Shown here in pieces: positions 592 through 30,935 of a stretch of DNA of 32,000 bases. The translations under genes and the position numbers were made by a program. The notes beneath the pieces are model-generated. The model had not been told where the DNA came from. It saw only the letters and a list, made by a program, of their open reading frames with translations, and did no database searches. Source of the DNA: Moraxella nasicaprae (GTDB lineage Bacteria > Pseudomonadota > Gammaproteobacteria > Pseudomonadales > Moraxellaceae). Each line of letters starts with the position of its first letter. Positions within the stretch are counted from its first letter, which is position 1. The stretch is from the NCBI RefSeq assembly GCF_025643275.1, contig NZ_CP089977.1:1050001-1082000 (forward strand), read 5' to 3'.

Positions 592-1785
592 TTATTCATC
601 TTTGGCATCATTATTGGGTGCTGTTTGTGCGGTCAAAAACTCGCCTTGTTCCACATGAAACACACGACAAATGGCTGATGGCGACAGTATTGATAATTTA
701 TCATCAATAACTTGGCAAATCTCTTGATTTAGACTGGTGATGATGACTTGGCATGGCAATGATAATATCGTATCCAGCAGCATTGATACCGCCCTTTGGT
801 CAAGCTCTGCATCAATATCATCAATCAGCACCACAGGTAGATTTAGTTGATTGCCTTGGGTGTTTAACTGACAAATCAGTGTTAATTGTGACAGTTTCAA
901 GGCAGTGATGAGTAGTTTTTTTTCGCCACGAGACAGAACATGACTTGCCTGCTCTCGCACCTTTTTGCCCTGCTCGTCCATCGTCTTAAATACAACGGAA
1001 ACATCAGCACGATGCGAGCCAACTCTGGTATAACCAAGCTCAATATCCTGCCAAATGCGTTCGGTCAAAGTGTGCAATAATGGCGTGCTAACATCAAAAC
1101 CTGCCTGATAAGATAAACTTAACATATCTTGATAAGCTGGCAACAGGCGACTGACCATCTGCTCAAATGCCAACTGCCATTGCTCAAAAATCTGCAATCG
1201 ATGCTCGTGTAAGGCATGAGCATAAAAAGAAAGCTGATTATCCCAAGCGGTTAGTTGGTGGGTATGCTGACGAATATTGGCTTGCTTTAACAGGGCATTT
1301 CGCTGTTTTAGCAGTCTTTGATAATTTAGCCATTGTTCATAAAAATCAGGTTTCACATGAAACACCAGCCAATCAAGCATCTGCCTACGAGTTGCACTCC
1401 CCTCGTCCAACACAGTCATGCTACTAGGGTCAATCAAAAGGACGGGCAAATGCTTACTTAGCACGCTTTGCCCCAACACCGTCTTATCATCAAATTTTAG
1501 TGTGGTGTCTGATTTTCCTGACAAATCCATCTGTTTTTTGATGGCGAGTGTGCAAGGCTGATAAAAATCAGTCATCGCCCAAACGATGCACTCTGTGGCG
1601 TGATGACTGATGTATCTTTTGGGTTCATGATGTCGAAAACTTTTGCCACGAGAAAGCAAAAACACCGCCTCCAACAGCGATGTTTTTCCGCTACCATTCT
1701 TGCCAATCAGTACATTATGCTTGGCAAGCGATAAGGTTGCTTGCTTGACATTACGAAACTGATGAATGTGTAACTTGCGAATCAC
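592..1785 (-). CDS. recF: DNA replication/repair protein RecF
   Basis: 397-aa ORF with Walker A GKNGSGKTSLLEA, ABC-like signature LSRGEKKLL and Walker B VLIDDIDAELD. It has a GTG start 2 nt after the dnaN stop and sits in the dnaN-recF-gyrB context. Confidence 0.95.
   Translation of the reverse strand: MIRKLHIHQFRNVKQATLSLAKHNVLIGKNGSGKTSLLEAVFLLSRGKSFRHHEPKRYISHHATECIVWAMTDFYQPCTLAIKKQMDLSGKSDTTLKFDDKTVLGQSVLSKHLPVLLIDPSSMTVLDEGSATRRQMLDWLVFHVKPDFYEQWLNYQRLLKQRNALLKQANIRQHTHQLTAWDNQLSFYAHALHEHRLQIFEQWQLAFEQMVSRLLPAYQDMLSLSYQAGFDVSTPLLHTLTERIWQDIELGYTRVGSHRADVSVVFKTMDEQGKKVREQASHVLSRGEKKLLITALKLSQLTLICQLNTQGNQLNLPVVLIDDIDAELDQRAVSMLLDTILSLPCQVIITSLNQEICQVIDDKLSILSPSAICRVFHVEQGEFLTAQTAPNNDAKDE
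648..661. repeat. 14-mer word GTTYCA-YR-TGRAAC, copy 1 (GTTCCACATGAAAC), inside recF
   Basis: Exact match read from the sequence. It encodes VFHVE in recF. Confidence 0.9.
1350..1363. repeat. 14-mer word copy 2 (GTTTCACATGAAAC), inside recF
   Basis: Exact match. It encodes VFHVK in recF. Confidence 0.9.
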
Positions 1786-1787
1786 GC

Positions 1788-2957
1788 TTAGACACGCATT
1801 GGCATGATGACATGGCGATAAAACTCATCGCCATCTTGATAAATCAAGGTTGGAGAGCCTGGCTGGCTCATCTCGATACACACCTTACCCTCCAAGACTC
1901 CAAGTACTGCTCGCAAATAGCTTTCATTGAATGATAATTCAATCGGACCGCCCTGATAGCTGACCGCCAGCAATTCTTCGGCTTGGCTTTTACTGCGTTT
2001 ATCATCAACACCGATTTTAAGGGTATCAGCCGATGAGAAATTCAAGAGTACGCCTGGCACTTCTTTGCTATTTAAAATCGAAATACGGCGTAGCACATCT
2101 GCCATTGCATCACGGTCAAAATAGACTTTTTTGTCATTTTCGGTCGGTATGACACGGCGATAATCGGGAAACTTACCCTCAATCAAACGGGCGGTCAAAC
2201 CCACTTCCATACCAGCTGCAACACCCACCTGCTCTTCGCTAGTCAAGGTTAAAGCCACTTGCAGGTATTCGCCATTAAACCCAAGCTCAACCACCTGCTC
2301 ATCATTGCTTGATTTGGATAATTCAAGCAACAATCGCTCCAATTCACTAATCGCCTTGCCAGGAATAATCATCTGAGTTGGCTCATAAGTTTCATTCAAT
2401 GGACGATACGCCATCGCCAAACGATGTCCATCTGTTGCTACGGCAGTCAGCTGTTCACCACCAAGCTCAAACAACACGCCAGTCAGATAATGACGCACAT
2501 CTTGGGTTGCCATTGCAAAACGAGTGCGATGAATCAAATCCACCAAGTCTGACTGAGCAATCTTAACAATGGTGGTCGGCACACCAGCACCCACATCTGG
2601 AAAATCATCGGCTGGCAACGCACTTAGCGTGTACTTACCTTGACCACTGCTGATTTGGCATCTTAGACTGCCTTGCGGTGCTTCGATGGTCACCATTTCA
2701 TCGGATAATGACTTACAAATACCAAAGAACATCTCGGCTGGCAAGGTGGTTGAACCCGCCTCAATGCACACATCAGGCGAGATTGGCAAACGCACCGTCA
2801 ATTCCAATTCAATGTCCGAACCTGTCAAGACCAAAAACTCTGGACTAAGTTCAATTTTAATGTTCGCCAAGATTGCCAAACGATGGCGTTTATCAGCCGC
2901 TTTTACAACCAGATTTACCGCCTTAATCAGCAAATCTCTATTGATGACTAATTTCAT
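1788..2957 (-). CDS. dnaN: DNA polymerase III beta sliding clamp
   Basis: 389-aa ORF. N-terminus MKLVINRDLL and C-terminus ...VIMPMRV are typical of DnaN. It lies directly downstream of dnaA. Confidence 0.96.
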   Translation of the reverse strand: MKLVINRDLLIKAVNLVVKAADKRHRLAILANIKIELSPEFLVLTGSDIELELTVRLPISPDVCIEAGSTTLPAEMFFGICKSLSDEMVTIEAPQGSLRCQISSGQGKYTLSALPADDFPDVGAGVPTTIVKIAQSDLVDLIHRTRFAMATQDVRHYLTGVLFELGGEQLTAVATDGHRLAMAYRPLNETYEPTQMIIPGKAISELERLLLELSKSSNDEQVVELGFNGEYLQVALTLTSEEQVGVAAGMEVGLTARLIEGKFPDYRRVIPTENDKKVYFDRDAMADVLRRISILNSKEVPGVLLNFSSADTLKIGVDDKRSKSQAEELLAVSYQGGPIELSFNESYLRAVLGVLEGKVCIEMSQPGSPTLIYQDGDEFYRHVIMPMRV

Positions 2958-3010
2958 AACAACTCACTTTGTTTATCTTTTTACTATGGTAAAAGGTTTA
3001 TTGGTCAAAT

Positions 3011-4381
3011 TCAAGAAAATTCCAGCATCATTTTTAGGGAATTATAATCCTTCTCAATGCTTGGGTCGGTCAGCTTTAATTCCTCAATTTTTTCACAAGC
3101 GTGCATCACGGTGGTGTGGTCTCGACCGCCAAACGCCTGTCCAATCTCAGGGAAGCTATCTTTGGTCAGCTCACGAATGAGTGCCATCGCCATCTGTCTT
3201 GGGCGAGCGATGGTACGCATGCGTTTTTTGCTCATCAAATCTTTTGACGATACGCCATAATATTCTGCCACCACATCACGAATATTTTCAGCATTCAATG
3301 CTCTGGCTCTGGCGGCAATCTTATCCTTAATGGCGGTGCTGACCAACGCCAAACTGACTGACTCGCCACGAATTTTGGCAATCATGTCTACCTGTTTTAA
3401 TGCACCTTCTAGCCCTCTGACATCGGACGGTAGATTTTGTGCCATGAACAACGCACATTCTTTGGGCAGCTCAAAACCCATCAACGAGGCTTTTTTGTCC
3501 AGAATCTGTACTCGCATTTCCATGTCAGGCGGTTCAATCATCAATGAAAGCCCGCCTGAAAATCTGGATAAAAATCTATCGTCAAACCCTTTCATCTGAG
3601 TTGGATGTCTATCCGATGCCATCACGACTTGTTTTTTGGTTGTCTTGCTAAAAGTATCAAATAAAGTCGTCAAAATTTGGGTGACTTTGGGTGCACTTTT
3701 GCCATCAAACAAATGCACATCATCGACAATGAGCAAATCCGCCTGACAAATCTGCTTAACAAAATCGTCCATTTTGTTTTCACGAAATGCCTCGGTGGTT
3801 TTCTCAAAAAAATGCTCTTTGGTAAAATAACAAAAACTCTTGCCGTGTTTGCGATAGCGATGGGCAATGGCGTGCATCAAATGCGTCTTGCCAAGCCCTG
3901 ATGACCCATATAAAAACACAGGTCCATAACTGTTGTTATAGTCTTTTTTGGATAATTCATGACAAGCATTGTACGCCAAACTGTTTGACTTACCCTTGAC
4001 AAAACGCTCGAAGGTAAATGACTCATTTAGCTGCTCGCTTTGTGCCAACAGCTTGCCTAAGGTTGTTTTTTTGGCGGTCTTAGTGGCGGTCTTGGCAGAC
4101 AAATTAACCGTTTCAACGATGACCTCAACCACCAAGCCCTGTGCATGCTTGAACACACTGCTTTTGATGTCCGCCAAATAATGATCTTTGATGTGCTGCA
4201 CCCATAAAGCATTGGGTGCAGTCAAAGTCAGCACTTTGGACGACAACTTGATGCTCAATGGGTGAATCCATTGATTAAAATCCTGCTCTTTCATGGCAAA
4301 TTGCAAATCTGCCAGACATTGCTGCCAGACATCGCCAATCTCAATCACAGGGATTTGTTCATCGTCAAATAATTGACTCAT
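3011..4381 (-). CDS. dnaA: Chromosomal replication initiator protein DnaA
   Basis: 456-aa ORF with AAA+ Walker A GSSGLGKTHLMHAI, Walker B LLIVDDVH and the C-terminal DNA-binding helix region GGRDHTTVMHACEKI. DnaA boxes lie upstream. Confidence 0.97.
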   Translation of the reverse strand: MSQLFDDEQIPVIEIGDVWQQCLADLQFAMKEQDFNQWIHPLSIKLSSKVLTLTAPNALWVQHIKDHYLADIKSSVFKHAQGLVVEVIVETVNLSAKTATKTAKKTTLGKLLAQSEQLNESFTFERFVKGKSNSLAYNACHELSKKDYNNSYGPVFLYGSSGLGKTHLMHAIAHRYRKHGKSFCYFTKEHFFEKTTEAFRENKMDDFVKQICQADLLIVDDVHLFDGKSAPKVTQILTTLFDTFSKTTKKQVVMASDRHPTQMKGFDDRFLSRFSGGLSLMIEPPDMEMRVQILDKKASLMGFELPKECALFMAQNLPSDVRGLEGALKQVDMIAKIRGESVSLALVSTAIKDKIAARARALNAENIRDVVAEYYGVSSKDLMSKKRMRTIARPRQMAMALIRELTKDSFPEIGQAFGGRDHTTVMHACEKIEELKLTDPSIEKDYNSLKMMLEFS

Positions 4382-5131
<750 letters not shown>

Positions 5132-5140
5132 GCATGATTG

Positions 5141-5170
5141 AAAAAAGCACCAGTTTTGGTGCTTTTTTTT
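5141..5170 (+). terminator. Rho-independent terminator/attenuator between rpmH and rnpA
   Basis: The hairpin AAAAAAGCACCA-GTTT-TGGTGCTTTTTTTT starts 10 nt after the rpmH stop and has a perfect GCACCA/TGGTGC stem followed by a T-run. Confidence 0.7.
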
Positions 5171-5220
5171 GCCCAAAATTCATCAATGATGTTACAATCT
5201 TTCTACCCTTTTGTGAAAAG

Positions 5221-5589
5221 ATGATGATTATGACCCAGCAATACACTTTTGATAAGAGCGATAGACTGCTTAATCCCAATGAGTTTAAAAAAGTGTTTGA
5301 CCAGCCAATTAAGAAAGTCCATGGCGAGCATTGCCTATTGTTTGTGGGCAAGGCTCAGACAAATACTGCCAGACTTGGACTTGCTATTACCAAAAAAAAG
5401 CTCAAACACGCCGTTGATCGCAATCGCCTTAAACGCCTAACCAGAGAGCATTTTCGTCTTACTCAATCATCTTTATCCCCCGTTGATGTAGTGATGATTG
5501 TCAAAAAAGGCTACGATAGGGAGTTTGACATCGGTGCTGAGGTGGCTGAAATTTTTAGAAAAATTAAACAAATGTATCCAAGTAATTAG
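5221..5589 (+). CDS. rnpA: Ribonuclease P protein component
   Basis: Track ORF 5134-5589, trimmed to the MMIMTQQYTF start because the upstream part overlaps the rpmH terminator. It has the RNR motif region AVDRNRLKRLTREHFR and the rpmH-rnpA-yidD-yidC context. The exact start (5221, 5224 or 5230) is uncertain. Confidence 0.88.
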   Translation: MMIMTQQYTFDKSDRLLNPNEFKKVFDQPIKKVHGEHCLLFVGKAQTNTARLGLAITKKKLKHAVDRNRLKRLTREHFRLTQSSLSPVDVVMIVKKGYDREFDIGAEVAEIFRKIKQMYPSN

Positions 5590-5606
5590 GTTGATATTTT
5601 GTAGAT

Positions 5607-5936: not shown

Positions 5937-6107
5937 AATAACGATAGCTTTACTGATTTCCCATACTTTGATTACAAAATGTCATAAAAATCTATCAATT
6001 CTTTGCTGTTTTTAGTAGAATAAAGGGTTTATTTATGATAGATAATCAACCCACAGGTGGTTTGAGTGCGGCTTAAACCATAAATATGCCTACATAGGAT
6101 TTGATTT

Positions 6108-7754: not shown

Positions 7755-7770
7755 ATACCGCCATTGATAA

Positions 7771-7801
7771 AAAAATCCTGCCCTTTTGGCGGGGTTTTTT
7801 A
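7771..7801 (+). terminator. Rho-independent terminator after yidC
   Basis: The hairpin AAAAATCCTGCC-CTTTT-GGCGGGGTTTTTT (one G-U pair in the stem) begins 17 nt after the yidC stop and ends in a T-run. Confidence 0.6.
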
Positions 7802-7886
7802 TTGCTCAAATTCCAGCGGTGATTTTCCCCAAATGACCAAAAAAGTGCTACAATATCAGGTTAACTGTCATTTTATCCCAAATATT

Positions 7887-9284
7887 ATGAACCAAATTAC
7901 TATCCAAAAACCCACCATTGCCGCCATTGCCACGCCGATTGGTCAAGGAGGTGTTGGGGTTGTTCGTTTATCTGGCAAGACCGCTTATCAAATTGGTTGC
8001 CAAATCACAGGACTGCCCAAGCTAAAACCTCGCCATGCACATTTTGCCAAATTTTATGGAGAGCAAGGCGTGATTGATGAGGGAGTGGTGCTTTATTTTC
8101 AGGCACCACACTCATTTACTGGCGAAGATGTGGTGGAGCTGCAAGGACATGGCGGTGTTGTGTTACAAAACATGCTGCTTGCCAGATTGTTTGAGCTGGG
8201 TGCAAGACAGGCTCAGGCGGGTGAGTTTTCGTATCGAGCTTTTGAAAATGATAAGATAGATTTGGTGCAAGCAGAAGCCATCAGTGACATGATTAGTGCC
8301 AATTCTGTTGCTCAGGCAAGCAGTGCGATGCGTTCTTTGAGTGGGGAGTTTTCTAATAAAATTAATCGATTGCTGGATAAATTGACCAATTTACGCCTGT
8401 ATGTGGAAGCATCTATCGATTTTCCTGATGAAGAAGATGTGGATTTTTTATCCGATGGCGTGATTGAATCTCGCTTGATGGATATTTTGTCAGGTGTTGA
8501 TGAGATTTTGGCGACCGCTAAACAGGGTCAGCTACTCAGAGATGGTGTGCATGTGGTACTGGCAGGCAGACCTAATGTTGGCAAATCAAGCCTGCTGAAT
8601 CGACTGTCTGGCACTAATCGAGCCATCGTTACCGACATTGCAGGTACTACCAGAGATACGCTCGAAGAGACTTTGGTGCTAAATGGCTTGACGATTCATT
8701 TGACAGACACCGCAGGACTTAGAGAGACGGATGATAAGGTGGAGCAGATTGGGATTGAGCGTGCCAAAACCGCCATTGAGCAAGCCGATGTGCTGATGAT
8801 GGTGTATGATATAACCCAAGAAAGCAAGCCACTTGACTTGGCAAAAGAGCTGTTTGGCGATAGCATTACTGGTGATATTGACCAGATATTGCATCAAAAA
8901 TTGATGCCCGTTGCCAATAAATGCGACCTTTTGGCAAGTCAAGACGATATTGTTCCACATGAAACTTGTCAGCCCATCAATATTTACCCCGTTTCATGTG
9001 AAACTTCTTGGGGGATTGATGCTTTGGTTGATGCTTTGTGTGAAAAGGTTGGATTTCATCCATCTGAAAATAGCCTGATTGCCCGCACCAGACATATTGA
9101 CGCCCTTAAAAGAACCCGAGCAAATCTTGAACAGGCACATCAAGAATTAACTGTATTTATGGCAGGCGAATTAGTGGCTGAGCGTTTGCGATTGGCACAG
9201 CAGGACTTGGGTGAGATTACAGGTCAGATGAGTGCTGATGAATTATTGGGTAAGATTTTTTCTAGTTTTTGTATTGGAAAATAA
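7887..9284 (+). CDS. mnmE: tRNA uridine-5-carboxymethylaminomethyl synthesis GTPase MnmE
   Basis: Track ORF 7764-9284, trimmed to MNQITIQKPTIAAIATP, because the upstream part overlaps the yidC terminator. G motifs are GRPNVGKSSLLN, DTAGLR and NKCD, and the C-terminus is FCIGK. Confidence 0.94.
   Translation: MNQITIQKPTIAAIATPIGQGGVGVVRLSGKTAYQIGCQITGLPKLKPRHAHFAKFYGEQGVIDEGVVLYFQAPHSFTGEDVVELQGHGGVVLQNMLLARLFELGARQAQAGEFSYRAFENDKIDLVQAEAISDMISANSVAQASSAMRSLSGEFSNKINRLLDKLTNLRLYVEASIDFPDEEDVDFLSDGVIESRLMDILSGVDEILATAKQGQLLRDGVHVVLAGRPNVGKSSLLNRLSGTNRAIVTDIAGTTRDTLEETLVLNGLTIHLTDTAGLRETDDKVEQIGIERAKTAIEQADVLMMVYDITQESKPLDLAKELFGDSITGDIDQILHQKLMPVANKCDLLASQDDIVPHETCQPINIYPVSCETSWGIDALVDALCEKVGFHPSENSLIARTRHIDALKRTRANLEQAHQELTVFMAGELVAERLRLAQQDLGEITGQMSADELLGKIFSSFCIGK
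8952..8965. repeat. 14-mer word copy 3 (GTTCCACATGAAAC), inside mnmE
   Basis: Exact match. It encodes VPHET, a different codon phase from the recF copies. Confidence 0.9.
8991..9004. repeat. 14-mer word copy 4 (GTTTCATGTGAAAC), inside mnmE
   Basis: Exact match, starting 39 bp after the start of copy 3. It encodes VSCET. Confidence 0.9.
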
Positions 9285-10867: not shown

Positions 10868-11149
10868 CTATTATATTATTTATTTTAAATAATATAAAAT
10901 TATCCACAGTCTATTTTTTCATAAATATGAACAATAGTATTTAAATTATGTTCCATGTGAAACTGTGGATAATTAGACGATTTGTATCATGATACATCGT
11001 TTATTGTATCGTAATATGATGATTTTTCAGGATATTTTTAAAAAATCAATGATTATTTTTATCTTGTGGATAACTTGATGATGGTTGATTTTACCATGCG
11101 ATAATAAATTGATTTCAAAAAAGTTATCCACAGTTTTGGAATGATGATT
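10868..11149. promoter_or_regulatory. Second DnaA-box cluster (4 perfect boxes) in the ribD-ribE spacer
   Basis: Perfect TTATCCACA at 10900-10908 (+) and 11124-11132 (+). Perfect TGTGGATAA at 10964-10972 and 11065-11073. The surroundings are AT-rich. The palindrome GTATCATGATAC is at 10984-10995. A copy of the 14-mer word directly abuts box 2. Confidence 0.7.
10950..10963. repeat. 14-mer word copy 5 (GTTCCATGTGAAAC), intergenic, abutting a DnaA box
   Basis: Exact match. It is immediately followed by TGTGGATAA (10964-10972). Confidence 0.9.
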
Positions 11150-11815
11150 ATGTTTACAGGCATTATTGAAACTCTGGGCAAGATTAAGGCGATTCAACCA
11201 ATTGGCGGCGATGTTCAGTTGGTGATTGATGCTCCCGAGTTGGATTTTAGCGATGTTAAGTTAGGAGACTCTATTGCCTCTAATGGCATTTGTCTGACCG
11301 TCGTTTCGGTGAGTGGTCATAGCTATGCGGTCGATGTTTCTCGTGAAACCATGAGTAAGACCGCCCTGCAAAACTGGCGAGTTGGCGATACGATTAACTT
11401 GGAAAAAGCCATGCTCCCCACCACTCGTTTTGGCGGTCATATTGTGGCAGGGCATGTGGACGGCGTGGGTCGAGTGCAAAAAATCAACCAAGATGCACGC
11501 TCGGTTTATATTGAGATTGAGATTCCCCAAGAATTGATGAGATATACTGCACATAAAGGTTCTATCACGCTAGACGGCATTAGCTTGACAACCAACGCCA
11601 TCATTCCTGAGAGAAATCTGGTGTGCCTGAACATCATTCCTCATACTGCCGAAAGAACCAATATCGCCAAACACTGGCAGGTGGGAGCTTTGGTTAATGT
11701 GGAGGTTGATTTGGTTGCTAGATATCTAGAAAGACTGTTATTGAGTCCAAAATCAGACAATAAACCTAAGAGTAATATCACAGAGGCTTTCTTGGCGGAA
11801 AATGGATTTGTGTAA
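11150..11815 (+). CDS. ribE: Riboflavin synthase (alpha chain)
   Basis: Canonical MFTGIIE start; the track ORF begins 9 nt earlier at MMIM. It has the duplicated lumazine-binding repeats GDSIASNGICLTV and GSITLDGISLTT. Confidence 0.93.
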   Translation: MFTGIIETLGKIKAIQPIGGDVQLVIDAPELDFSDVKLGDSIASNGICLTVVSVSGHSYAVDVSRETMSKTALQNWRVGDTINLEKAMLPTTRFGGHIVAGHVDGVGRVQKINQDARSVYIEIEIPQELMRYTAHKGSITLDGISLTTNAIIPERNLVCLNIIPHTAERTNIAKHWQVGALVNVEVDLVARYLERLLLSPKSDNKPKSNITEAFLAENGFV

Positions 11816-11922: not shown

Positions 11923-12915
11923 ATGGCAAAAATGAGAGTGGTATTTGCAGGCACGCCAGAGTTTGCTGCGGTGGCGTTGCAAAAATTGATTGATGAAAAA
12001 GAAGCGTTGAACATTGATATCGTTGCGGTGTACACTCAGCCTGATCGCAGGTCTGGGCGTGGACAAAAAATAACCATGTCAGCAGTCAAGAATGTCGCAT
12101 TGGCAAATGGTATTGCTGTTGAGCAGCCTGAAAGTTTTAGCTTAAAGCATGAATTAGGTCAGGTTTGTCGTGAAACTTTGCAAAGTTATCAAGCTGATGT
12201 CATGATTGTGGCGGCTTATGGATTGATACTACCCAAGGCGGTGCTGGAAATGCCAAAATATGGCTGTCTTAATATCCATGCTTCTTTATTACCAAAATGG
12301 CGAGGGGCGGCACCAATTCATCGAGCCATTTTGTCAGGCGATGCCACAACAGGCATCACCATCATGCAGATGAATCAAGGCTTGGATGCAGGAGATATGC
12401 TATATAAGGTGGCTTGTCCAATCCAAGATGATGACACCACGGCGACACTTCACGATACATTGGCGGTGCTTGGCGGAGAAGCGATTGTGACCGTTTTGGC
12501 GGACTTGGTGAATTTTCAAGCCAATGCAATTCCTCAAAATGATGCCGATGCAACCTATGCTGACAAGGTGTTTACCCAAGATGGTTTGATTGATTGGAGG
12601 CAGTCTGCTCATCATATTCAGCGACAGATTCGAGCATTATCTGCGTACACTTATGTCAATCAGGAGCGTATCAAGGTAATCTCAGTCTTGCCTGTTAAAC
12701 CTGAACAAACAACTAATGAGCCTGCTGGCAAAATCATCAGCGTGGGCAAAAAAGCCATTTTGGTTTCATGTGGAACAAATGAGCAGGGTGTGGCACATTT
12801 GCTAAACATTACAGGAATGCAGTGGGCTGGTGGCAAAATGCTAAATGCAGAACAAATCGCCAATGCCAATAAGCTGAACGATGGCGATGTCTTTGAGATA
12901 AAAGCAGATGAATAA
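11923..12915 (+). CDS. fmt: Methionyl-tRNA formyltransferase
   Basis: N-terminus (MAK)MRVVFAGTPEFA and the motif HASLLPKWRGAAPI. It overlaps rsmB by 8 nt. The start could be 11923 or 11932; the track ORF starts at a GTG at 11899. Confidence 0.92.
   Translation: MAKMRVVFAGTPEFAAVALQKLIDEKEALNIDIVAVYTQPDRRSGRGQKITMSAVKNVALANGIAVEQPESFSLKHELGQVCRETLQSYQADVMIVAAYGLILPKAVLEMPKYGCLNIHASLLPKWRGAAPIHRAILSGDATTGITIMQMNQGLDAGDMLYKVACPIQDDDTTATLHDTLAVLGGEAIVTVLADLVNFQANAIPQNDADATYADKVFTQDGLIDWRQSAHHIQRQIRALSAYTYVNQERIKVISVLPVKPEQTTNEPAGKIISVGKKAILVSCGTNEQGVAHLLNITGMQWAGGKMLNAEQIANANKLNDGDVFEIKADE
12763..12776. repeat. 14-mer word copy 6 (GTTTCATGTGGAAC), inside fmt
   Basis: Exact match. It encodes VSCGT. 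Confidence 0.9.
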
Positions 12916-14245
12916 TTTTTTAGATAAAATCAATAAAAAGACCTTATCATCTCGTGCAAAGTCAATATTGGTTATTGAAGAAATTCTAAATGGAAATTCA
13001 CTATCTAGTCTGCTGGATATGACGCTTGGTACCATCAATGAGACTGATAGAGGATTTTTTCATGAGTTGCTGGTGGGTACATTAAGGCACTGGCACGCAC
13101 TGGCACGCATCAGCGAGAGTCTGCTTGATAAAGAGGTGAGTGATCAGGGTTTGCTTGTGGCGATTCATGTTGGATTGTACCAAATGCTGTACATGAATAC
13201 GCCCGATTATGCTGCCATCAATGATACCGTAGAGGCTGTCAAGCAGCTGGATAAGGGTTATGGGGCGTCTTTGGTTAATGCGATTTTACGAAAGGTACAA
13301 AAAACCCCTACTAAATTTGCCAAAAAAGTGCATAAAAATCATAGCTTACCTAATTGGCTGGCAAAAGAATTAAAGCAAGACTGGCCTGAGTATTATGATG
13401 AGCTGGGGCAGGCTTTGCGTACTTGTGCGGCGGTTTTTTTGCGTATCAATGAGCGACAATGCTCGGTTGAGCAATATTCTGGCATTTTAACGCAGCATCA
13501 GACTGCTCATCAAATCGTCAAACTGGGTATTGATGACAAACAAACCATTCGGCTAGATGAGCAGATTCGCATTGTTGATTTGCCTCATTTTCAGGAAGGC
13601 TGGCTGATGGTGCAGGATTTGCATGCTCAATTATCGGCACATTTACTTGAAAAACTGGCAAAAAATCAGCTGTCTGGCAGAGTGCTTGATTTGTGTGCCG
13701 CACCAGGTGGTAAGACAACCCATTTGCTTGAAAAGTTCCACATGGAACAGTTATTAGCGATTGATAATGACGAAAAACGCTTGCTAAGAGTGCAGGAGAA
13801 TCTTGATAGACTGCGGTTAAATGACATGGCGGTGCAGACATTGGTGGCTGATGCCAGAAGTTGGCAGGCGGATAAACCATACGATGTGATTGTGCTTGAC
13901 GCTCCTTGTACGGCGACGGGTGTGATTCGTAGGCATCCTGACATCGGACTGCTTCGTACCGAAGATGATGTCCGCCAAACTTGTCAGTTACAAAAGCAAA
14001 TTTTGAATAATGCATGGCAGCAACTACAAGTTGGCGGTGTGTTACTATACATCACTTGCTCCATATTAAAGGTTGAAAATGAGCATCAATTATTGGATTT
14101 TTTGAACACCAATACTGACGCCAAACCACTGCCGTTCACATTGGACCTGCCCAACCAAATCAAACAGCAGGTTGGTTATCAATGTTTGCCATTGGATACA
14201 CAAGGCGGCGATGGTTTTTATTACGCAGCTTTGCAAAAAGTCTAG
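12908..14245 (+). CDS. rsmB: 16S rRNA (cytosine967-C5)-methyltransferase RsmB
   Basis: 445-aa ORF with an N-terminal NusB-like domain, the SAM motif DLCAAPGGKTTHL, and catalytic cysteines in DAPCTATGVIRRHPD and YITCS. It shows fmt-rsmB coupling. Confidence 0.92.
   Translation: MNNFLDKINKKTLSSRAKSILVIEEILNGNSLSSLLDMTLGTINETDRGFFHELLVGTLRHWHALARISESLLDKEVSDQGLLVAIHVGLYQMLYMNTPDYAAINDTVEAVKQLDKGYGASLVNAILRKVQKTPTKFAKKVHKNHSLPNWLAKELKQDWPEYYDELGQALRTCAAVFLRINERQCSVEQYSGILTQHQTAHQIVKLGIDDKQTIRLDEQIRIVDLPHFQEGWLMVQDLHAQLSAHLLEKLAKNQLSGRVLDLCAAPGGKTTHLLEKFHMEQLLAIDNDEKRLLRVQENLDRLRLNDMAVQTLVADARSWQADKPYDVIVLDAPCTATGVIRRHPDIGLLRTEDDVRQTCQLQKQILNNAWQQLQVGGVLLYITCSILKVENEHQLLDFLNTNTDAKPLPFTLDLPNQIKQQVGYQCLPLDTQGGDGFYYAALQKV
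13735..13748. repeat. 14-mer word copy 7 (GTTCCACATGGAAC), inside rsmB
   Basis: Exact match. It encodes KFHMEQ. Confidence 0.9.
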
Positions 14246-17573: not shown

Positions 17574-17587
17574 GTTTCACATGGAAC
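17574..17587. repeat. 14-mer word copy 8 (GTTTCACATGGAAC), intergenic between convergent tsaC and the glsB-like gene
   Basis: Exact match, 50 nt after the tsaC stop and 9 nt before the glsB-like stop codon. Confidence 0.9.
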
Positions 17588-17786: not shown

Positions 17787-18729
17787 TACTAAATTCACTT
17801 TAAAACCCTACAAATCTATGCTAAAATATCGCTATTATGGCATATTCAATAGAACTTAAACAAAAGGCCTTAGCCTACTTAGAGCAGTGTGGTAATATTA
17901 GCACAGTTTGTACTGCTTACAACATTTCAAGAAGCACCTTGTATGCTTGGATTAAAAAACAAGAACAAGGTGATTTGTCCTGTCAAAGTGGTGGCAATCG
18001 TGGTGTTAAAGTGGACAGAAATAAGCTTAAAACTTATGTAGAGCAAAACCCTGATGCTTACTTGTATGAAATTGCTGAAGTTTTTAATTGTGGTACAAGT
18101 ACCATCTTTTATGCTTTACGCTCTCTTGGTATTACCCATAAAAAAAGACCACAAGTTACAAAGAACAAGACCCAAACAAAATCAAAGACTATCAAGACAG
18201 GCTAAAACAGTTACAAAGCATACAAGACTACGAGCTTGTTTATGTAGATGAAACTGGTATTGACACTTACCTACACCGCACCCACGCCAGAAGTTTAAAG
18301 GGTCAAAAAGTCTATGATAAGGTGAGTGGTAAATATTATCAACGCATATCATTGGTTGCTGGACAAATTGGTAACAAAGCCAAAAACTTGATTGCTCCAC
18401 TTATCTATCAAAACACAATGGTAAGCAACTTATTTGAAACTTGGTTTGAACAAATGCTTCTACCTAGCCTTGACAACCACGCCAAGCAAACAGGTAGACC
18501 TTGTATCATCATCTTAGATAATGCAAGATTTCATAGAATGAAGCAGTTACAGGTACTTGCTAATAACACAACATGCAAACATGTTATCTTGCCACTCCCA
18601 CCTTATTCACCTAACCTAAACCCCATAGAACACACTTGGGCAACTATTAAGAGATGGCTTAGAAGTCATCTGTCAAAGTTTGAGAGTATTGAAGGTGGGC
18701 TGATGTCTTATTTTGAGTTGAATTGAGTA
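17787..18729 (+). mobile_element. IS630-family insertion sequence (943 bp)
   Basis: Imperfect terminal inverted repeats: left TACTAAATTCACTTTAAAA, and reverse complement of the right end TACTCAATTCAACTCAAAA (15 of 19 identical). It is flanked by TA at 17785-17786 and 18730-18731, the target-site duplication typical of IS630/Tc1-mariner. It carries an HTH plus DDE transposase. Confidence 0.85.
17837..18726 (+). CDS. IS630-family DDE transposase, two frames joined by a -1 frameshift at A7 (18140-18146)
   Basis: Frame 1 (17837-18145) gives MAYSIELKQKALAYLEQCGNISTVCTAYNISRSTLYAWIKK...LGITHKK (HTH domains). The -1 frame is open from just after a TAA at 18139-18141 to the stop at 18724-18726. It gives KTTSYKEQDPNKIKDYQDRL...VYVDETG...IIILDNARFH...NPIEHTWATIK, the DDE triad. 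The fused product is about 296 aa. Confidence 0.8.
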
Positions 18730-21956: not shown

Positions 21957-21991
21957 GGCATGATATATTGATGCGATTTAGGGATAATTTG

Positions 21992-23857: not shown

Positions 23858-23864
23858 TGACACA

Positions 23865-23898: not shown

Positions 23899-23912
23899 GG
23901 CATGATACAAAT

Positions 23913-24518: not shown

Positions 24519-24560
24519 ATAAATTCCTTGATAAATAAGCCAAATTATAACACAAAAGCC

Positions 24561-25376: not shown

Positions 25377-25377
25377 G

Positions 25378-26301
25378 TTATCCTCTTGGGTGGTGAGTGG
25401 CGTGAAGTTGTTGCAGGCGTGCGGTGGCGACATGGGTATAAATCTGCGTGGTGGATAAATCGCTATGACCCAGTAGTAGCTGCACACTGCGTAAATCAGC
25501 ACCGTGATTGACCAGATGAGTGGCAAAAGCGTGTCGTAAAGTGTGTGGCGAGATATGACTGGTAATGCCTGCGATTAGGGCGTATTTTTTGATGATGTGC
25601 CAAAAATTATGCCGTGTCATGTAGCCACCATGCTCGCTCAAAAACACTGCCTGACAGTCTTTTTTGCCCAGTAAAAATCCTGCACGATGTGGTAGATAGC
25701 GATGTAAAGCATCGATGGCATAGTCGCCCAATGGCACAAGGCGAGTTTTATTGCCCTTGCCTGTGATGCGAATCCAGCCTGCATTAAGATTAAGCTCATC
25801 TAGGGATAAATTCACCAGCTCGCTGACTCGTAATCCACAAGCATACAGCACTTCTAGCATTGCTTTATCTCTTAGACCCAAAGCGGTGCTGACATCAGGA
25901 GCTAACAAGAGTGTTTCGATGTCTTGTTCGGATAGGGATTTTGGCAATGCCATGCCTAGTTTTGGGCTTTTGATGTGCTGGCAGGGATTGTCCTGCCTTT
26001 GGTCTTGTTCAATTTGCCACAAAAAAAATCGCCGCAAACTTGCCAATAGCCGTGCGATGGATTTGGGGGATTTATTGTCTTGCTTGGCAAGGGTTAGACA
26101 GCTGATGACTTGGCTTTCTTGCCATTGAGACAAAGGGAGCTGATGTTGTTTGATGCACCATCGCAAGTCTTGCAAATAGGCATTTCTGGTTGCCACAGAC
26201 AAACCCTGTGCCAGCATTGCCCCACGAAAATCACTCAGATAATCTGGGTCATCATCACACAGGACGACTTTGCTTTTGCGAGGTGTGGTGGCACGGCTCA
26301 T
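25378..26301 (-). CDS. xerD: Site-specific tyrosine recombinase XerD
   Basis: Trimmed to MSRATTPRK; its ATG overlaps the tusA stop as ATGA. The C-terminal catalytic region HTLRHAFATHLVNHGADLRSVQLLLGHSDLSTTQIYTHV...HHPRG is nearly identical in pattern to XerD. Confidence 0.9.
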   Translation of the reverse strand: MSRATTPRKSKVVLCDDDPDYLSDFRGAMLAQGLSVATRNAYLQDLRWCIKQHQLPLSQWQESQVISCLTLAKQDNKSPKSIARLLASLRRFFLWQIEQDQRQDNPCQHIKSPKLGMALPKSLSEQDIETLLLAPDVSTALGLRDKAMLEVLYACGLRVSELVNLSLDELNLNAGWIRITGKGNKTRLVPLGDYAIDALHRYLPHRAGFLLGKKDCQAVFLSEHGGYMTRHNFWHIIKKYALIAGITSHISPHTLRHAFATHLVNHGADLRSVQLLLGHSDLSTTQIYTHVATARLQQLHATHHPRG

Positions 26302-26534
26302 GATTTTTTTTGTACCACATAGCGATAACTGCCATCGTCTAGGGTTTCTTGGCTGACTAGGGTATGCCCCAAATGACGACAAAAATTAGGAATGTCTCTG
26401 GTGGTGGCAGGGTCGGTTGCCAATATCTGGATATACTCACCGCCAGCAGCCTGCCTGATGGTTTTGTGCAGTAGCATTACAGGTTCTGGACAAATCAATC
26501 CTGTGGTGTCTAATTGATGATGAAAGTCTGTCAT
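26298..26534 (-). CDS. tusA: Sulfurtransferase TusA family protein
   Basis: MTDFHHQLDTTGLICPEPVMLLHKTIR carries the CPxP active-site motif. The product is 78 aa from the ATG at 26534; the track ORF uses a TTG at 26543. Confidence 0.85.
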   Translation of the reverse strand: MTDFHHQLDTTGLICPEPVMLLHKTIRQAAGGEYIQILATDPATTRDIPNFCRHLGHTLVSQETLDDGSYRYVVQKKS

Positions 26535-26545
26535 AGTGTCCAATC

Positions 26546-27010
26546 TTAATGATGTTGTTTGGTTGAATGGTTGTGGGTGGATTTATCTTGTAAAAAAGAT
26601 AAGAATTTTTGTAAATTTACCTTAATCAAAAAAGGCATGCCAAACCAAGCAATCATCGCCAAAAATAAACTCATAAAAAAGACGATGCTTGCATTGCCAA
26701 TGGCATAACTAATCAGAGCAAACGCCAAAAGTCCTACTCCTACCATCAATAGAATCAATAAAATAATCCCATCAACAATGCGATAGCGATGGAGCAAAAA
26801 CAGATGATATAAACTGATGGGTATGCTGATGGCAATGAGCAAATACGGCAGATAGTGAAATGCATAATACACCACCGTGCTGTCTTTAAAGTGTGCCATC
26901 GATGCCAAAGTGCCAAAGACACAAAAGCAGATGACGGCAAGAATGCCAAGCCAAACCGTAAATTTGGCGAGCGTAAGAGCATGATTGAAAGTGTTGGTTA
27001 AGTCAGTCAT
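26546..27010 (-). CDS. Hypothetical integral membrane protein (about 4 predicted TM helices)
   Basis: Trimmed to MTDLTNTF; the ATG at 27010 overlaps the ruvX end by 8 nt. It has four long hydrophobic segments and a His-rich C-terminus (STHNHSTKQHH). I recognise no family. Confidence 0.6.
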   Translation of the reverse strand: MTDLTNTFNHALTLAKFTVWLGILAVICFCVFGTLASMAHFKDSTVVYYAFHYLPYLLIAISIPISLYHLFLLHRYRIVDGIILLILLMVGVGLLAFALISYAIGNASIVFFMSLFLAMIAWFGMPFLIKVNLQKFLSFLQDKSTHNHSTKQHH

Positions 27011-27485
27011 CTTTGGGCGAGTCTTTGTGGTTTTTGATATAGATAGCGTGCTTGGGACTACGAAAATAGCCGTCAATCAATAAGCAGGCTGAGATGTCAT
27101 CGATGGGGTCTCTTTCATCATCAATCCAGCCGTTTTCCCAAGCAATTTGTCGTGCTTCGACAGATGATAGGCGTTCATCATAGACGAAGACAGACACGGC
27201 TTGATGGCGTTCTGCCAAGCGGTGCGAAAGCCTGCGAGCAAATTTATGGGCTCGCTTGGAAATCATCGAGTCTGTACCGTCCATGTTAAGTGGCAATCCC
27301 ACCAACACCTCGTGAATGCCCCAATGCTCAATGATGCCAAGCAGATTATCCCAGTCGGCAGGCTGTCCATTATCCATCGCTAAGATGTCAAATGGGCGAG
27401 CGTCTTGGGTTAGGCTGTTGCCCAGTGCCATGCCCATTTTTTTGACACCGTAGTCTAGGGCGAGTATCAAAGTTGGATTGTTCAT
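27003..27485 (-). CDS. ruvX: Putative pre-16S rRNA nuclease / Holliday-junction-resolvase-like RuvX (YqgF)
   Basis: 160-aa ORF with the N-terminal LALDYGVKKMGMALGN motif (the RNase H-like YqgF signature). It lies directly downstream of yqgE. Confidence 0.9.
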   Translation of the reverse strand: MNNPTLILALDYGVKKMGMALGNSLTQDARPFDILAMDNGQPADWDNLLGIIEHWGIHEVLVGLPLNMDGTDSMISKRAHKFARRLSHRLAERHQAVSVFVYDERLSSVEARQIAWENGWIDDERDPIDDISACLLIDGYFRSPKHAIYIKNHKDSPKDD

Positions 27486-28037
27486 TTAGGCACTCCCAAT
27501 ATGGTCAATCATCATGTGGCGATGAATGCCGATTTTGTCGTAGATGCAAGCCAATCTGTCTTTGGCATCGATGGCAAATATGGTGGATAAATCAGCAGGA
27601 TAAGCCAACCAATCGCCATTGGCAATCTCTTGGTCTAATTGTCCTTTGCCCCAATTACAATACCCCATGCACAGCAGATAATGCTTGACTCGGTCAAGGC
27701 TGATGTCTTCTAAGATGTCTTTGCTGGTGGTCAGGCAGATATTTTCTGAAATGGCAAACGATGATTTATAATCAGGCAACCCTGTGTGTAGCACAAAGCC
27801 AGCTTCGCCTCGCACAGGACCGCCATTCATCGCTGGTGTGTTCATGGTGGTTTGGCTGGTGAACAAATCTAACTCGCTAAGCAGTCCGCCAACGCTGGCA
27901 TCTAGGGGTTGATTGATGATAAATCCCCAAGCACCATCTGTGTTGTGCTTGCAAATATAGATGAGCGTGTCAATAAATCGCTCATCGTCCATTTGAATGC
28001 TGGGTGCTAAAAAATGATGAGTGAGTTGTTTAGTCAT
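27486..28037 (-). CDS. yqgE: YqgE/AlgH family protein
   Basis: 183-aa ORF containing LIYICKHNTDGAWGFIINQP, the hallmark of the YqgE/AlgH (UPF0301) family. It forms the conserved yqgE-yqgF pair. Confidence 0.88.
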   Translation of the reverse strand: MTKQLTHHFLAPSIQMDDERFIDTLIYICKHNTDGAWGFIINQPLDASVGGLLSELDLFTSQTTMNTPAMNGGPVRGEAGFVLHTGLPDYKSSFAISENICLTTSKDILEDISLDRVKHYLLCMGYCNWGKGQLDQEIANGDWLAYPADLSTIFAIDAKDRLACIYDKIGIHRHMMIDHIGSA

Positions 28038-29766
28038 GATTACTCTGATGGAAATTTTGTAGCTCTTCTAGGGGAATGTTGGCAGTCATCTCATCAGCGT
28101 GCCTGATGTCGTTTAGCAGGCTTTTGACATGAGCCTTAGTGGCTTCGGTGATGTTCACACCGCCTGACATGCGAGCCAGTTCATCAATCTGGGCATCGTC
28201 TGTGATGATTTGCATGTTGCTGACGGTTTGCTCCCCGTGTTCTTTATGTACCAAAATATGACGATGAGCAGCAGCAGCAACTTGGGCTTGATGAGTGATG
28301 GCAAGCAGCTGTTGATGTTTGCCCAAACGACGCAGCAGCTCGCCCACCACCTGTGCTGTCCCGCCACTGATACCAACATCAACCTCGTCAAACACCAGCG
28401 TTGGCGTGTGATATTCGCCACTACCAGCCACCATCACTTGCATCACCAAAGCAATGCGAGACAGCTCGCCCCCTGAGGCGACTTTGTGTAAGGGTTGTAG
28501 TGGCATGCCCACATTGGCACTAAATAGTAGTGCGATGTCATATTTGCCATGTGCATTGTAGTGTTCGGCAGGTTTTTGATTAAAGGCAAATTCGCAGCGA
28601 GCATTAGGCAAAGCCAGAGGTAGCAGTCGAGCTTCTAGCCGTTCGCAGATATCTGGGGCAATGTTGATGCGAGCCTCATCAAGTGCATTGGCAGCGGTCA
28701 GATAGGCTTGATACGCTGCTTGAACCTGTGCGTCCATCGTGTCGTTGTCGGGCAATGCACCCAATGTATCAAGCTCGGTTTGCCAATTTTGGGCATCAGC
28801 CACCAATGCTTTGATGGGGGTGTGGTATTTATTGGATAATCTGTGAGCTAGACTAATCAGTGTATTTAGTTCATCTAGTCTTGCCTCATCTGGCAGTTGC
28901 TGCTCAGCATAATCGTACAGCTTGGCGGCTGCCTCGTTGATATGCTCTTGGGCGACAGATAGGATATGGCTACACTCATTGAAGGTTTTGCTACCAGCAT
29001 TGTTGTCACAAATCTTCATCGCACGAGCCAGCAAGCTGGACACGCTTGGCGTGTCATTGTCATTATCTAACAAAACCGCAGATTCGACTGCTTCACGCAT
29101 CAGATGTTCAAGATTTGACAGCTCATCGTATTCTGCTTCGATGTCATCAAAATTCACCAAAAGCAGTGGTTCGATGTCAGCCAGCTTGGCGGATAATAGT
29201 GCCATGCGGTCAGCTCTTTGGGCGGACTGGCTTTTGGCTTCATCGGCTTGTTTTTTTAGGGTTTGATAATGATGAAAAGCGGTTTTGGTGGCAGATTTTA
29301 GTTCGCCAAGCTCGCCAATGCGGTCTAGCCAATCCACGACAAATTGAGGTTTTAAGAGTTCAAGACCTGCATGCTGGCTGTGGATATTAACCAAGATGGA
29401 ACCAAGGCTTTTTAGTTCGCTGATGCTGGCTGGCACGCCGTTAATCCATGATTTTGAGCGACCCTGATTGCTGATTTTACGGCGAATCAGTAGGGTGTCT
29501 TCTTCTAACACTCTGTCGTGCTGGGCAAACCAGTCGGCAACCTGAGGATTGTCTGTGATGTCAAATTCGCCAAACACCGAAGCCTCGTCTGCACCGTGTC
29601 TGATGATGCCACTATCAGCCCGTTCGCCAGCACACAAGGATAAAGCGTCCAAAATCAAGGACTTACCTGCACCAGTCTCGCCTGTGATGACATTAAATCG
29701 TTCATCAAAGCTGATTTCTTTATGGTCGATGAGAGCCAGATTTTGTAAGGTAAGCGAGATGAGCAT
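28030..29766 (-). CDS. recN: DNA repair protein RecN
   Basis: 578-aa ORF with Walker A GETGAGKSLILDAL, a long coiled-coil middle, the signature ASGGELSRIAL and Walker B LVFDEVDVGISG. Confidence 0.95.
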   Translation of the reverse strand: MLISLTLQNLALIDHKEISFDERFNVITGETGAGKSLILDALSLCAGERADSGIIRHGADEASVFGEFDITDNPQVADWFAQHDRVLEEDTLLIRRKISNQGRSKSWINGVPASISELKSLGSILVNIHSQHAGLELLKPQFVVDWLDRIGELGELKSATKTAFHHYQTLKKQADEAKSQSAQRADRMALLSAKLADIEPLLLVNFDDIEAEYDELSNLEHLMREAVESAVLLDNDNDTPSVSSLLARAMKICDNNAGSKTFNECSHILSVAQEHINEAAAKLYDYAEQQLPDEARLDELNTLISLAHRLSNKYHTPIKALVADAQNWQTELDTLGALPDNDTMDAQVQAAYQAYLTAANALDEARINIAPDICERLEARLLPLALPNARCEFAFNQKPAEHYNAHGKYDIALLFSANVGMPLQPLHKVASGGELSRIALVMQVMVAGSGEYHTPTLVFDEVDVGISGGTAQVVGELLRRLGKHQQLLAITHQAQVAAAAHRHILVHKEHGEQTVSNMQIITDDAQIDELARMSGGVNITEATKAHVKSLLNDIRHADEMTANIPLEELQNFHQSNHD

Positions 29767-29807
29767 CTTGCCAATTTCCCATTTAGATAAGTAAGGTCAA
29801 ACTCTCT

Positions 29808-29836
29808 ATGATAATAAAAGCCGTCTGATTTGGCAA
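29808..29836 (-). promoter_or_regulatory. Candidate sigma70 promoter for recN
   Basis: The minus strand reads TTGCCA (29836-29831), a 17-nt spacer, then TATCAT (29813-29808), about 40 nt upstream of the recN ATG. This is pattern evidence only. Confidence 0.35.
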
Positions 29837-30036
29837 TCATCAAAATGTAAAGCGATGATTTTTACCAAATCGCATCAGGTGTGTAGGCAAAATATTAACC
29901 CAAAGATGATTGATGGGCTGATGAGGGCGACTTTGTTTTTTTGAATATGATGTGGGTTAATGCAGACTTATTTTGACAATCTGCATTGAATTTGCCACAA
30001 TAGCTCATCTTTATCCATCATTTTAATCAATCCGCC

Positions 30037-30891
30037 ATGAACAAAGTGCATAAAAAATCTCGCCATAGCGACAAATCAGTAGCTCAATCAAAATCTTTTG
30101 AAAAATCCACCCAAAAATCTAAGCCAAAAAATCCACATTTTTATGGCATTCATGCTGTCAAGATGCTGCTCAATCGCCGTCCGCAAGATGCACTGACCTT
30201 ATTTGTCCAACTAAGAGATGATGGCGGAGTCAGTGATGAACACGCCCAGCTGGTGGAGCTTGCCAAGTCGGCAGGCGTGAGCGTGCAGATGACGCACAAA
30301 GACCGACTGGCTCAGCTGTGTGATAGCCATCAGCATCAGGGTGTGGTCGTGGCCGCCAGACCGCTTGCCATGCTTGATGAAAGCGTGTTGGAGCAGCTGT
30401 GTCAAAAAGATGATGTGTTATTTTTGGTGCTAGACCAAATCACAGATGCTCATAATTTGGGGGCGTGTTTGCGGTCGGCATGTGCGATGGGTGTTGATGC
30501 CGTCATTATTCCAAAACACCAATCAGCCAGCCTAACCCCGACTGTTGCCAAAGTTTCGGTTGGAGCAGCAGAGGTCATCGATGTGGTGTCTGTGACCAAC
30601 TTGGCTCGCACTTTGACCATGCTCAAAAAACAAGGCGTGTTTGTGTTTGGCACGGCACTTGATGAGACTGCCAAGCCGCTGCATGATTGTGATTTTGAGG
30701 GTAAGGTTGCCATCGTGATGGGTTCGGAGGGCGATGGCATGAGACGCTTGACCATCGAAAGCTGTGATACTTTGGTGTACATTCCGATGGCGGATATTCC
30801 TGACCGACCTCAAAGTCTAAATGTCAGCGTTGCCACAGGCATGACTTTGTACGAGGTGGCTCGTCAGCGTCTGATGCGTGGTTCATCGTAG
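30037..30891 (+). CDS. rlmB: 23S rRNA (guanosine2251-2'-O)-methyltransferase RlmB (SpoU family)
   Basis: 284-aa ORF. FYGIHAV begins the conserved RlmB core. SpoU motifs are LVLDQITDAHNLGACLRSA, IVMGSEGDGMRRLT and IPM...SLNVSVATGMTLYE. It carries a Lys/Ser-rich N-terminal extension of about 35 aa. Confidence 0.9.
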   Translation: MNKVHKKSRHSDKSVAQSKSFEKSTQKSKPKNPHFYGIHAVKMLLNRRPQDALTLFVQLRDDGGVSDEHAQLVELAKSAGVSVQMTHKDRLAQLCDSHQHQGVVVAARPLAMLDESVLEQLCQKDDVLFLVLDQITDAHNLGACLRSACAMGVDAVIIPKHQSASLTPTVAKVSVGAAEVIDVVSVTNLARTLTMLKKQGVFVFGTALDETAKPLHDCDFEGKVAIVMGSEGDGMRRLTIESCDTLVYIPMADIPDRPQSLNVSVATGMTLYEVARQRLMRGSS

Positions 30892-30906
30892 GAGTAAGTT
30901 GATGAT

Positions 30907-30920
30907 GTTTCATGTGAAAC
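30907..30920. repeat. 14-mer word copy 9 (GTTTCATGTGAAAC), intergenic after rlmB
   Basis: Exact match, 16 nt after the rlmB stop and upstream of the bidirectional terminator. Confidence 0.9.
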
Positions 30921-30921
30921 C

Positions 30922-30935
30922 TATCCATGTGAAAT
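30922..30935. repeat. Degenerate 14-mer word copy (TATCCATGTGAAAT)
   Basis: The core TCCATGTGAAA is conserved and three outer positions differ. It lies 1 nt after copy 9. Confidence 0.5.

Follow-up and report, generated by a model that had tools for sequence, protein, structure and literature searches.

The DNA analyzed here, a stretch of 32,000 nucleotides that we call the window, is the replication origin region of Moraxella nasicaprae, whose chromosome measures 2,106,666 bp. The element in question is a 14-bp dyad word, GTTYCAYRTGRAAC, which recurs across this region as putative chromosomal parS. The recF-dnaN-dnaA genes occupy the minus strand at 592-4381, and the plus strand beyond oriC carries rpmH-rnpA-yidD-yidC-mnmE-nrdR-ribD-ribE-fmt-rsmB-thrC-dprA-tsaC. 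The remaining genes are an IS630 fragment, ribBA, rarA, a GDSL autotransporter, a glycosyltransferase, an xerC/D-like gene, ruvX, recN, rlmB, and a fabF-like gene. Between 4 and 6 kb of the window, the GC skew switches sign and the cumulative skew is at its lowest. A scan for DnaA boxes located a cluster in the dnaA-rpmH interval, and all distances are given from it; the sites in the window span -4.0 to +26.3 kb about that cluster. The features are listed below in window coordinates, all without strand assignment.

4537 to 4761: oriC, a DnaA-box cluster in the dnaA-rpmH interval, with three perfect TTATCCACA boxes and three one-mismatch boxes
648 to 661: putative parS core GTTCCACATGAAAC, exact match, in recF at about amino acids (aa) 375-380, ~4.0 kb left of oriC
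1350 to 1363: putative parS core GTTTCACATGAAAC, exact match, in recF at about aa 141-146, ~3.3 kb left of oriC
8952 to 8965: putative parS core GTTCCACATGAAAC, exact match, in mnmE at about aa 397-401, +4.3 kb from oriC
8991 to 9004: putative parS core GTTTCATGTGAAAC, exact match, in mnmE at about aa 410-414, 39 bp from the 8952 site
10950 to 10963: putative parS core GTTCCATGTGAAAC, exact match, ribD-ribE intergenic, +6.3 kb
11336 to 11349: putative decayed parS GTTTCTCGTGAAAC, one mismatch (A-to-T, ACGT lost), in ribE at about aa 66-70
12163 to 12176: putative decayed parS GTTTGTCGTGAAAC, two mismatches (ACGT lost), in fmt at about aa 89-93
12763 to 12776: putative parS core GTTTCATGTGGAAC, exact match, in fmt at about aa 289-293, +8.1 kb
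13735 to 13748: putative parS core GTTCCACATGGAAC, exact match, in rsmB at about aa 276-281, +9.1 kb
17574 to 17587: putative parS core GTTTCACATGGAAC, exact match, intergenic between tsaC (plus strand) and a transglycosylase-associated protein gene (minus strand), +12.9 kb
30907 to 30920: putative parS core GTTTCATGTGAAAC, exact match, intergenic between rlmB (plus strand) and the fabF-like gene (minus strand), +26.3 kb

The nine exact matches are the ones that an earlier, sequence-only reading of this DNA had located, and their number lies far beyond chance. The mean expectation for GTTYCAYRTGRAAC is 0.01 copies per window, none of 100 dinucleotide-preserving shuffles reached nine, and the local enrichment of the 14- to 16-bp unit is about 900-fold. 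The GC content, which that reading had put at about 43%, was measured as 44.1%. Allowing up to two mismatches added only the sites at 11336 (one mismatch) and 12163 (two mismatches), and at both of these positions the relatives have a perfect site. The three-mismatch class stands at the chance level, with 16 members found against 15.5 expected, and therefore the string at 30922, which has three mismatches and had been described as a degenerate copy, carries no statistical weight. It is kept in two same-species contigs, which says little because those contigs are themselves ~94% identical overall. Across 30907-30935, a half-site-like string, CCATGTGAAAT, is repeated right after the 30907 site, giving GTTTCATGTGAAAC-C-TATCCATGTGAAAT. 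The dyad centers of the nine window copies are all CA or TG, with none CG and none TA, and the sequences flanking the copies are unrelated except for a tendency to T before the core and A after it. No excess of half-sites was detected in the window, where GTTYCAC occurs 12 times over both strands and 9 of the 12 lie within full sites. A reading of the word as DnaA boxes, considered since GTTCCACA resembles TTATCCACA, was rejected: none of the copies lies in the intergenic DNA of oriC, and the dyad as a whole is identical to parS.

Six of the copies fall within coding sequences (recF and mnmE twice each, fmt, and rsmB), where they are read in two different phases; the resulting peptides, VFHV, VFHV, VPHE, VSCE, VSCG, and FHME, are unrelated, just as had been listed. 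The other three are intergenic. Two of these, at 17574 and 30907, indeed lie between convergent genes. The 17574 site is kept in a contig of a same-species metagenome-assembled genome (MAG; L080:21241), and the 30907 site is kept in same-species contigs as well (L080:8847 and L081:1666). The further suggestion that the intergenic copies sit next to terminators did not hold, as a terminator scan showed none overlapping 17574 or 30907.

The positions of the sites were then compared between species. The origin regions of Moraxella equi, Moraxella lacunata, and one Psychrobacter were located via their MnmE proteins, and the sites of nine Moraxella and Psychrobacter species were mapped onto the window proteins by tblastn. 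M. equi and M. lacunata each have 11 exact cores in 21.5 kb, of which 9 in each species are CACGTG centered and several equal the perfect 16-mer TGTTTCACGTGAAACA; the Psychrobacter origin region has nine sites. The positions common to the relatives are recF aa143/144 and aa377/378, mnmE aa399 and aa412, the ribD-ribE spacer, ribE aa68, fmt aa91 and aa291, and rsmB aa278/279. All nine species have both the recF aa377/378 site, which is CACGTG centered in M. equi and M. lacunata, and the rsmB aa278/279 site. The recF aa143/144 site is found in M. pluranimalium, M. porci, M. equi, M. lacunata, and Psychrobacter, and the mnmE aa399 site is found in seven species. The pair of mnmE sites 39 bp apart is kept in M. 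porci, Moraxella sp. ATCC 23246, and M. catarrhalis; Psychrobacter, too, has the aa412 member of that pair. The ribD-ribE spacer holds one site in M. pluranimalium and three each in M. equi, M. lacunata, and Psychrobacter, and the fmt aa291 site recurs in M. pluranimalium and M. porci. At the position of the decayed window site 11336 (ribE aa68), M. equi and M. lacunata have a perfect TGTTTCACGTGAAACA and Psychrobacter has TGTTTCACGTGAAACT; at that of 12163 (fmt aa91), six Moraxella species have CACGTG-centered orthologues.

That the same positions are occupied across nine species indicates that selection acts on the DNA, and that it has done so since before the divergence of Moraxella and Psychrobacter. 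The claim of the sequence-only reading that conservation is at the level of the DNA and not of a protein motif is thereby upheld. The same data bear on the idea that the word is a chance or mobile-element repeat, in favor of which the window offers only an IS630 fragment. With 0.01 copies expected, unrelated flanks, and sites at orthologous codons of core genes in nine species, that idea has a vanishingly small probability.

The parS consensus is TGTTNCACGTGAAACA, and in most bacteria the ori domain is where parS is sited (PMC7022226). The window copies match this consensus at 13 of the 14 core positions, departing from it only at one base of the central CG. In a DnaA-based scan of reference genomes, the word was found at five Moraxella origin loci, with three to eight copies each, and also in unrelated phyla, where it is arrayed near dnaA in Chloroflexia and Treponema contigs. 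In a Treponema sp. MAG (L044, 4080-4710), 12 cores lie within ~620 bp at a spacing of ~45 bp, and the last of them abuts a TGTGGATAA DnaA box. In a Chloroflexia MAG (L017, 13110-13482), there are six cores in ~370 bp, all CA/TG centered. These Treponema and Chloroflexia parS arrays are unusually tight. Further Chloroflexia-related contigs have three to four copies of the word near dnaA, and two other contigs from uncultured bacteria have single copies ~1 kb from a parB gene. As an element type, the repeated dyad is thus an ordinary and already known one, an origin-proximal parS cluster. On the strength of its sequence and placement, we regard the set of nine copies and two decayed copies, with high confidence, as chromosomal parS, the centromere-like loading site of ParB (Spo0J), and predict that it nucleates ParB for origin segregation and SMC loading. 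The sequence-only reading had offered the site of an abundant dimeric DNA-binding protein as an alternative, and this was essentially right, the word being the parS of ParB.

That reading had favored a genome-wide signal of the DNA-uptake type, in which the competence machinery recognizes the word, transformation is biased toward the organism's own DNA, and copies accumulate throughout the genome. The distribution of the sites near the origin and across the genome is the test that separates parS from such a signal. Over seven Moraxella origin loci, 49 sites were counted in ~150 kb. Four non-origin loci, two from M. lacunata and one each from M. equi and M. caprae, were found via relatives of the IS630 transposase, and their 81.6 kb contained no match with up to one mismatch. 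The M. equi control locus (L071) lies at least 1.2 Mb from the origin locus (L073) on the same 2.9-Mb contig and has no sites in 20.4 kb, versus 11 in the 21.5 kb at the origin. Likewise, no sites occur in ~14 kb around iscS on contigs carrying exactly the M. nasicaprae IscS, which brings the non-origin Moraxella DNA scanned to ~96 kb with no sites.

For M. nasicaprae itself, the flanks of the window were extended by a same-species MAG contig, the proteins of which cluster with those of M. nasicaprae at 90% identity or higher. Further sites were found to the left of oriC in same-species contigs, at -11.1 kb and -18.5 kb, and none was found in the 8.8 kb of the MAG contig beyond the +26 kb site. 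The cluster in this species therefore comprises at least 11 intact sites over at least 45 kb, from -18.5 kb or further left to +26 kb. The site distribution is that of parS and not that of an uptake sequence.

An uptake function had several points to recommend it. Locally, the word occurs about once per 3.5 kb, some copies fall within core genes, and the window includes dprA. Moraxella is naturally competent and is not reported to have an uptake sequence, M. catarrhalis included (PMC3045334). At that density, however, ~27 copies would be expected in the 81.6 kb plus ~14 kb of non-origin DNA where there are none. The presence of dprA is a coincidence of conserved gene order, as the same synteny is found in M. 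equi. A literature search for an uptake sequence or a 14-mer repeat in Psychrobacter or Moraxella found nothing relevant, and no occurrence of the variant words of the 14-mer was found in bacterial literature text.

The Moraxella word does resemble the DNA uptake sequence (DUS) of Neisseria and the uptake signal sequence (USS) of Pasteurellaceae in being short and over-represented, also inside core genes, in a naturally competent bacterium. DUS and USS are asymmetric and lineage specific, are spread over the whole genome with about one copy per kb, and are often found in terminators as inverted pairs. Unlike them, the Moraxella word is a dyad, is restricted to the origin, and lies outside terminators; its intergenic copies are single, with no inverted-pair terminators. 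Nor is it specific to a lineage, since it equals the pan-bacterial parS that forms the arrays of Chloroflexia and Treponema. We consider an uptake role extremely improbable.

The window is also marked by a strong depletion of six 4-bp palindromes relative to Markov expectation, as follows.

ACGT: 1 observed, 63 expected
CCGG: 0 observed, 36 expected
CGCG: 2 observed, 51 expected
GATC: 6 observed, 190 expected
GCGC: 1 observed, 97 expected
GGCC: 8 observed, 147 expected

Other palindromes, CTAG, GTAC, and TTAA among them, are near expectation. The same-species contigs L080 and L082 to L085 are likewise depleted of the six, the iscS contigs show the same avoidance signature, and so does a pool of 72.5 kb of same-species sequence, in which ACGT occurs 3 times versus 150 expected. 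The one ACGT of the window, at 5002-5005, lies in codons 2 to 4 of rpmH (ATG AAA CGT ACT, encoding M K R T), where the coding sequence of L34 begins. In M. lacunata, M. equi, and M. caprae, the same palindromes are depleted, with the exception of ACGT. The depletions suggest long exposure to several type II restriction-modification (R-M) specificities.

This pressure lends some interest to another proposal of the sequence-only reading, that the word is the target of an R-M system or of a DNA methyltransferase (here, an orphan one): selection of the restriction type on short palindromes is strong in this genome, and the site contains CAYRTG. However, restriction targets are depleted here and the word is enriched, and the conserved unit of 14 to 16 bp is longer than the avoided 4-bp palindromes. 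The copies, moreover, are confined to the origin and kept at orthologous positions across genera. The proposal accordingly fares poorly, and there is hardly any probability that it is correct. What restriction-type pressure seems to have done is edit the center of parS as ACGT was purged from the genome.

The core CACGTG contains the nearly eliminated ACGT, and so each site would have fixed a CG-to-TG or CG-to-CA transition. Each CA/TG site has one perfect half-site (GTTYCAC) and one that is changed at its innermost base (GTTYCAT). At the ribE aa68 and fmt aa91 positions, ACGT was lost in other ways, with CTCGTG and GTCGTG, respectively, in M. nasicaprae and CCCGTG and CGCGTG in M. porci. The observed/expected ratio of ACGT outside the sites and the fraction of sites that are CG centered are given below for each species.

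M. nasicaprae: ACGT ratio 0.02; 0 of 9 sites CG centered
M. catarrhalis: ACGT ratio 0.07; 1 of 5
M. porci: ACGT ratio 0.12; 0 of 6
M. pluranimalium: ACGT ratio 0.25; 2 of 8
M. canis: ACGT ratio 0.27; 1 of 3
Moraxella sp. ATCC 23246: ACGT ratio 0.34; 1 of 5
M. equi: ACGT ratio 0.66; 9 of 11
M. lacunata: ACGT ratio 0.71; 9 of 11
Psychrobacter: ACGT ratio 0.89; 5 of 9

The two quantities are correlated (Spearman rho of 0.84, n = 9 species), with a P value of 0.005 that overstates the evidence because the nine species are related and not independent points. CA/TG centers are also found in Psychrobacter, Chloroflexia, and Treponema, none of which avoid ACGT. This center variant is therefore a common one, and genomes that avoid ACGT are not alone in having it. 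We infer that the purge simply fixed a center variant that ParB already tolerated. The fuller account is that the purging of ACGT, presumably through long exposure to an ACGT-specific restriction system or through deamination of 5-methylcytosine, rewrote the centromere of M. nasicaprae, and similarly that of M. porci, such that every parS lost CACGTG by CG-to-TG or CG-to-CA changes, two decayed otherwise, and ParB is tolerant or coadapted. We judge this account to be as apt to prove wrong as right. No ACGT-specific R-M system was found in the R-M literature on M. catarrhalis.

Besides the inflated P value, several points weigh against identifying the word as a functional parS. Motif and profile searches confined to the window and ~450 kb of Moraxellaceae loci turned up no ParB or ParA gene, and literature searches for a Moraxella ParB found nothing. 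In Pseudomonas aeruginosa, ParB has a lower affinity for sites with an altered CACGTG core (PMC4368675), so a set composed entirely of CA/TG sites may be one of weak sites unless the local ParB tolerates them. The same-species sampling away from the origin amounts to only ~14 kb, and the cluster extends leftward to at least -18.5 kb.

The negative outcome of the search for a ParB gene and the core deviation of every M. nasicaprae site, of a kind that lowers affinity in P. aeruginosa, could also be accommodated by a different dimeric protein acting on the same dyad, for instance a paralogue of ParB or a regulator of the origin region; canonical ParB would then be lacking or play no part. Perfect 16-bp parS sites at the same positions in sister species are hard to explain without ParB, however, and the origin-centered distribution is a ParB hallmark (PMC7022226). 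The SMC partner is present too, as the M. caprae locus L072 has an SMC gene (a TIGR02168 match on a truncated open reading frame [ORF]), which shows it for the genus in a species other than that of the window. The only groups that lack chromosomal par genes are Enterobacteriaceae, Pasteurellaceae, and Mycoplasmataceae (PMC7022226), and from this published distribution we infer that M. nasicaprae has a ParB. Overall, a different protein appears quite unlikely, and ParB remains the expected ligand of these sites.

Among known systems, the closest comparison is chromosomal parS/ParB itself, first defined in Bacillus subtilis (PMC7022226), with which the Moraxella sites share the 14- to 16-bp dyad, the origin-proximal location, the presence of several copies, and the placement of many of them inside coding sequences. 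They differ from the consensus in that every M. nasicaprae copy seen has CA/TG instead of CG at its center and none is a perfect palindrome. Multisite origin clusters are known from Corynebacterium glutamicum (10 sites), Streptomyces coelicolor (21 sites), and Myxococcus xanthus (22 sites) (PMC7022226). Those clusters likewise have about 10 or more parS sites in the ori domain, and not one to four, and they belong to organisms of a different phylum. P. aeruginosa, a gammaproteobacterium, has parS1 to parS10 and half-parS sites (GTTCCAC/GTTTCAC), with a like mixture of arms and a hierarchy of imperfect sites (PMC4368675, PMC7022226). In each of the Moraxella sites, one half-site remains perfect. 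The functional sites of P. aeruginosa, however, keep CACGTG, and core mutants bind less well (PMC4368675), and the M. nasicaprae window lacks an excess of isolated half-sites.

The Noc-binding site (NBS) of Firmicutes is likewise a 16-bp dyad bound by a protein of the ParB family. Its consensus, which we take to be TATTTCCCGGGAAATA, has A and not G at position 2 and C and not A at position 7, which are the positions that set specificity. Compared by eye with that presumed consensus, the 16-mers of the window have the parS-type base at both, G at 2 and A at 7. NBS are dispersed over the whole chromosome apart from the terminus region (PMC12203958).

A mechanism for the M. nasicaprae sites can be proposed from established ParABS biology (PMC7022226). 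A ParB dimer would read the two GTTYCAC half-sites through its helix-turn-helix (HTH) domains, and binding to parS would trigger CTP-dependent closure of the ParB clamp, which would then slide onto flanking DNA. Loading at many close sites would build a large partition complex over the oriC region. ParA would move such complexes apart, and the complex would also load SMC condensin. The sites can reside inside housekeeping genes because what matters is position relative to oriC, and selection at the level of DNA holds the codon positions.

Several other observations were made at these loci. The mnmE ORF that begins at TTG 7764 (7764-9284, 506 aa) is ~40 aa longer than the annotated orthologues of close relatives (457 to 466 aa), and the true start is probably downstream of 7764. 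The IS630-family element of the window (17837-18726) is split between two ORFs, with the HTH part encoded at 17837-18205 and the DDE part at 18322-18726. The DDE part has 99% identity to a transposase of M. nasicaprae, and a frameshift or degeneration of the element is probable. The element is missing at the same position of the same-species MAG contig (L080) and is therefore a strain-specific insertion. A split IS630-family element is also found in M. equi (L073, 7239-8077), between yidD and yidC in the otherwise conserved rpmH-rnpA-yidD-yidC-mnmE operon adjoining oriC. About 20 kb to the left of oriC, a same-species MAG (L083, 19279-20241) carries a type I-F cas1 gene. The encoded Cas1f clusters at 90% identity or higher with those of Alysiella filiformis and Alysiella crassa, both Neisseriaceae, and of Moraxella oblonga, which suggests a recent horizontal transfer of a CRISPR-Cas locus between families.

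The value of these results is mainly corrective, in that an ordinary centromere had looked like a new uptake signal of a genus that is competent and related to pathogens. They also provide a first parS map for Moraxella and Psychrobacter, and the sites can be used as markers of the ori domain. The conflict between ACGT avoidance and the centromere is the only new angle, and it leads to a prediction on how far ParB tolerates changes at the center of the dyad. It would offer a clean natural example in which restriction-type avoidance of a 4-mer, ACGT, prevails over the perfect palindrome in a cis-acting site that is essential. If that is true, genome defense and chromosome segregation pull on the same bases in these bacteria.

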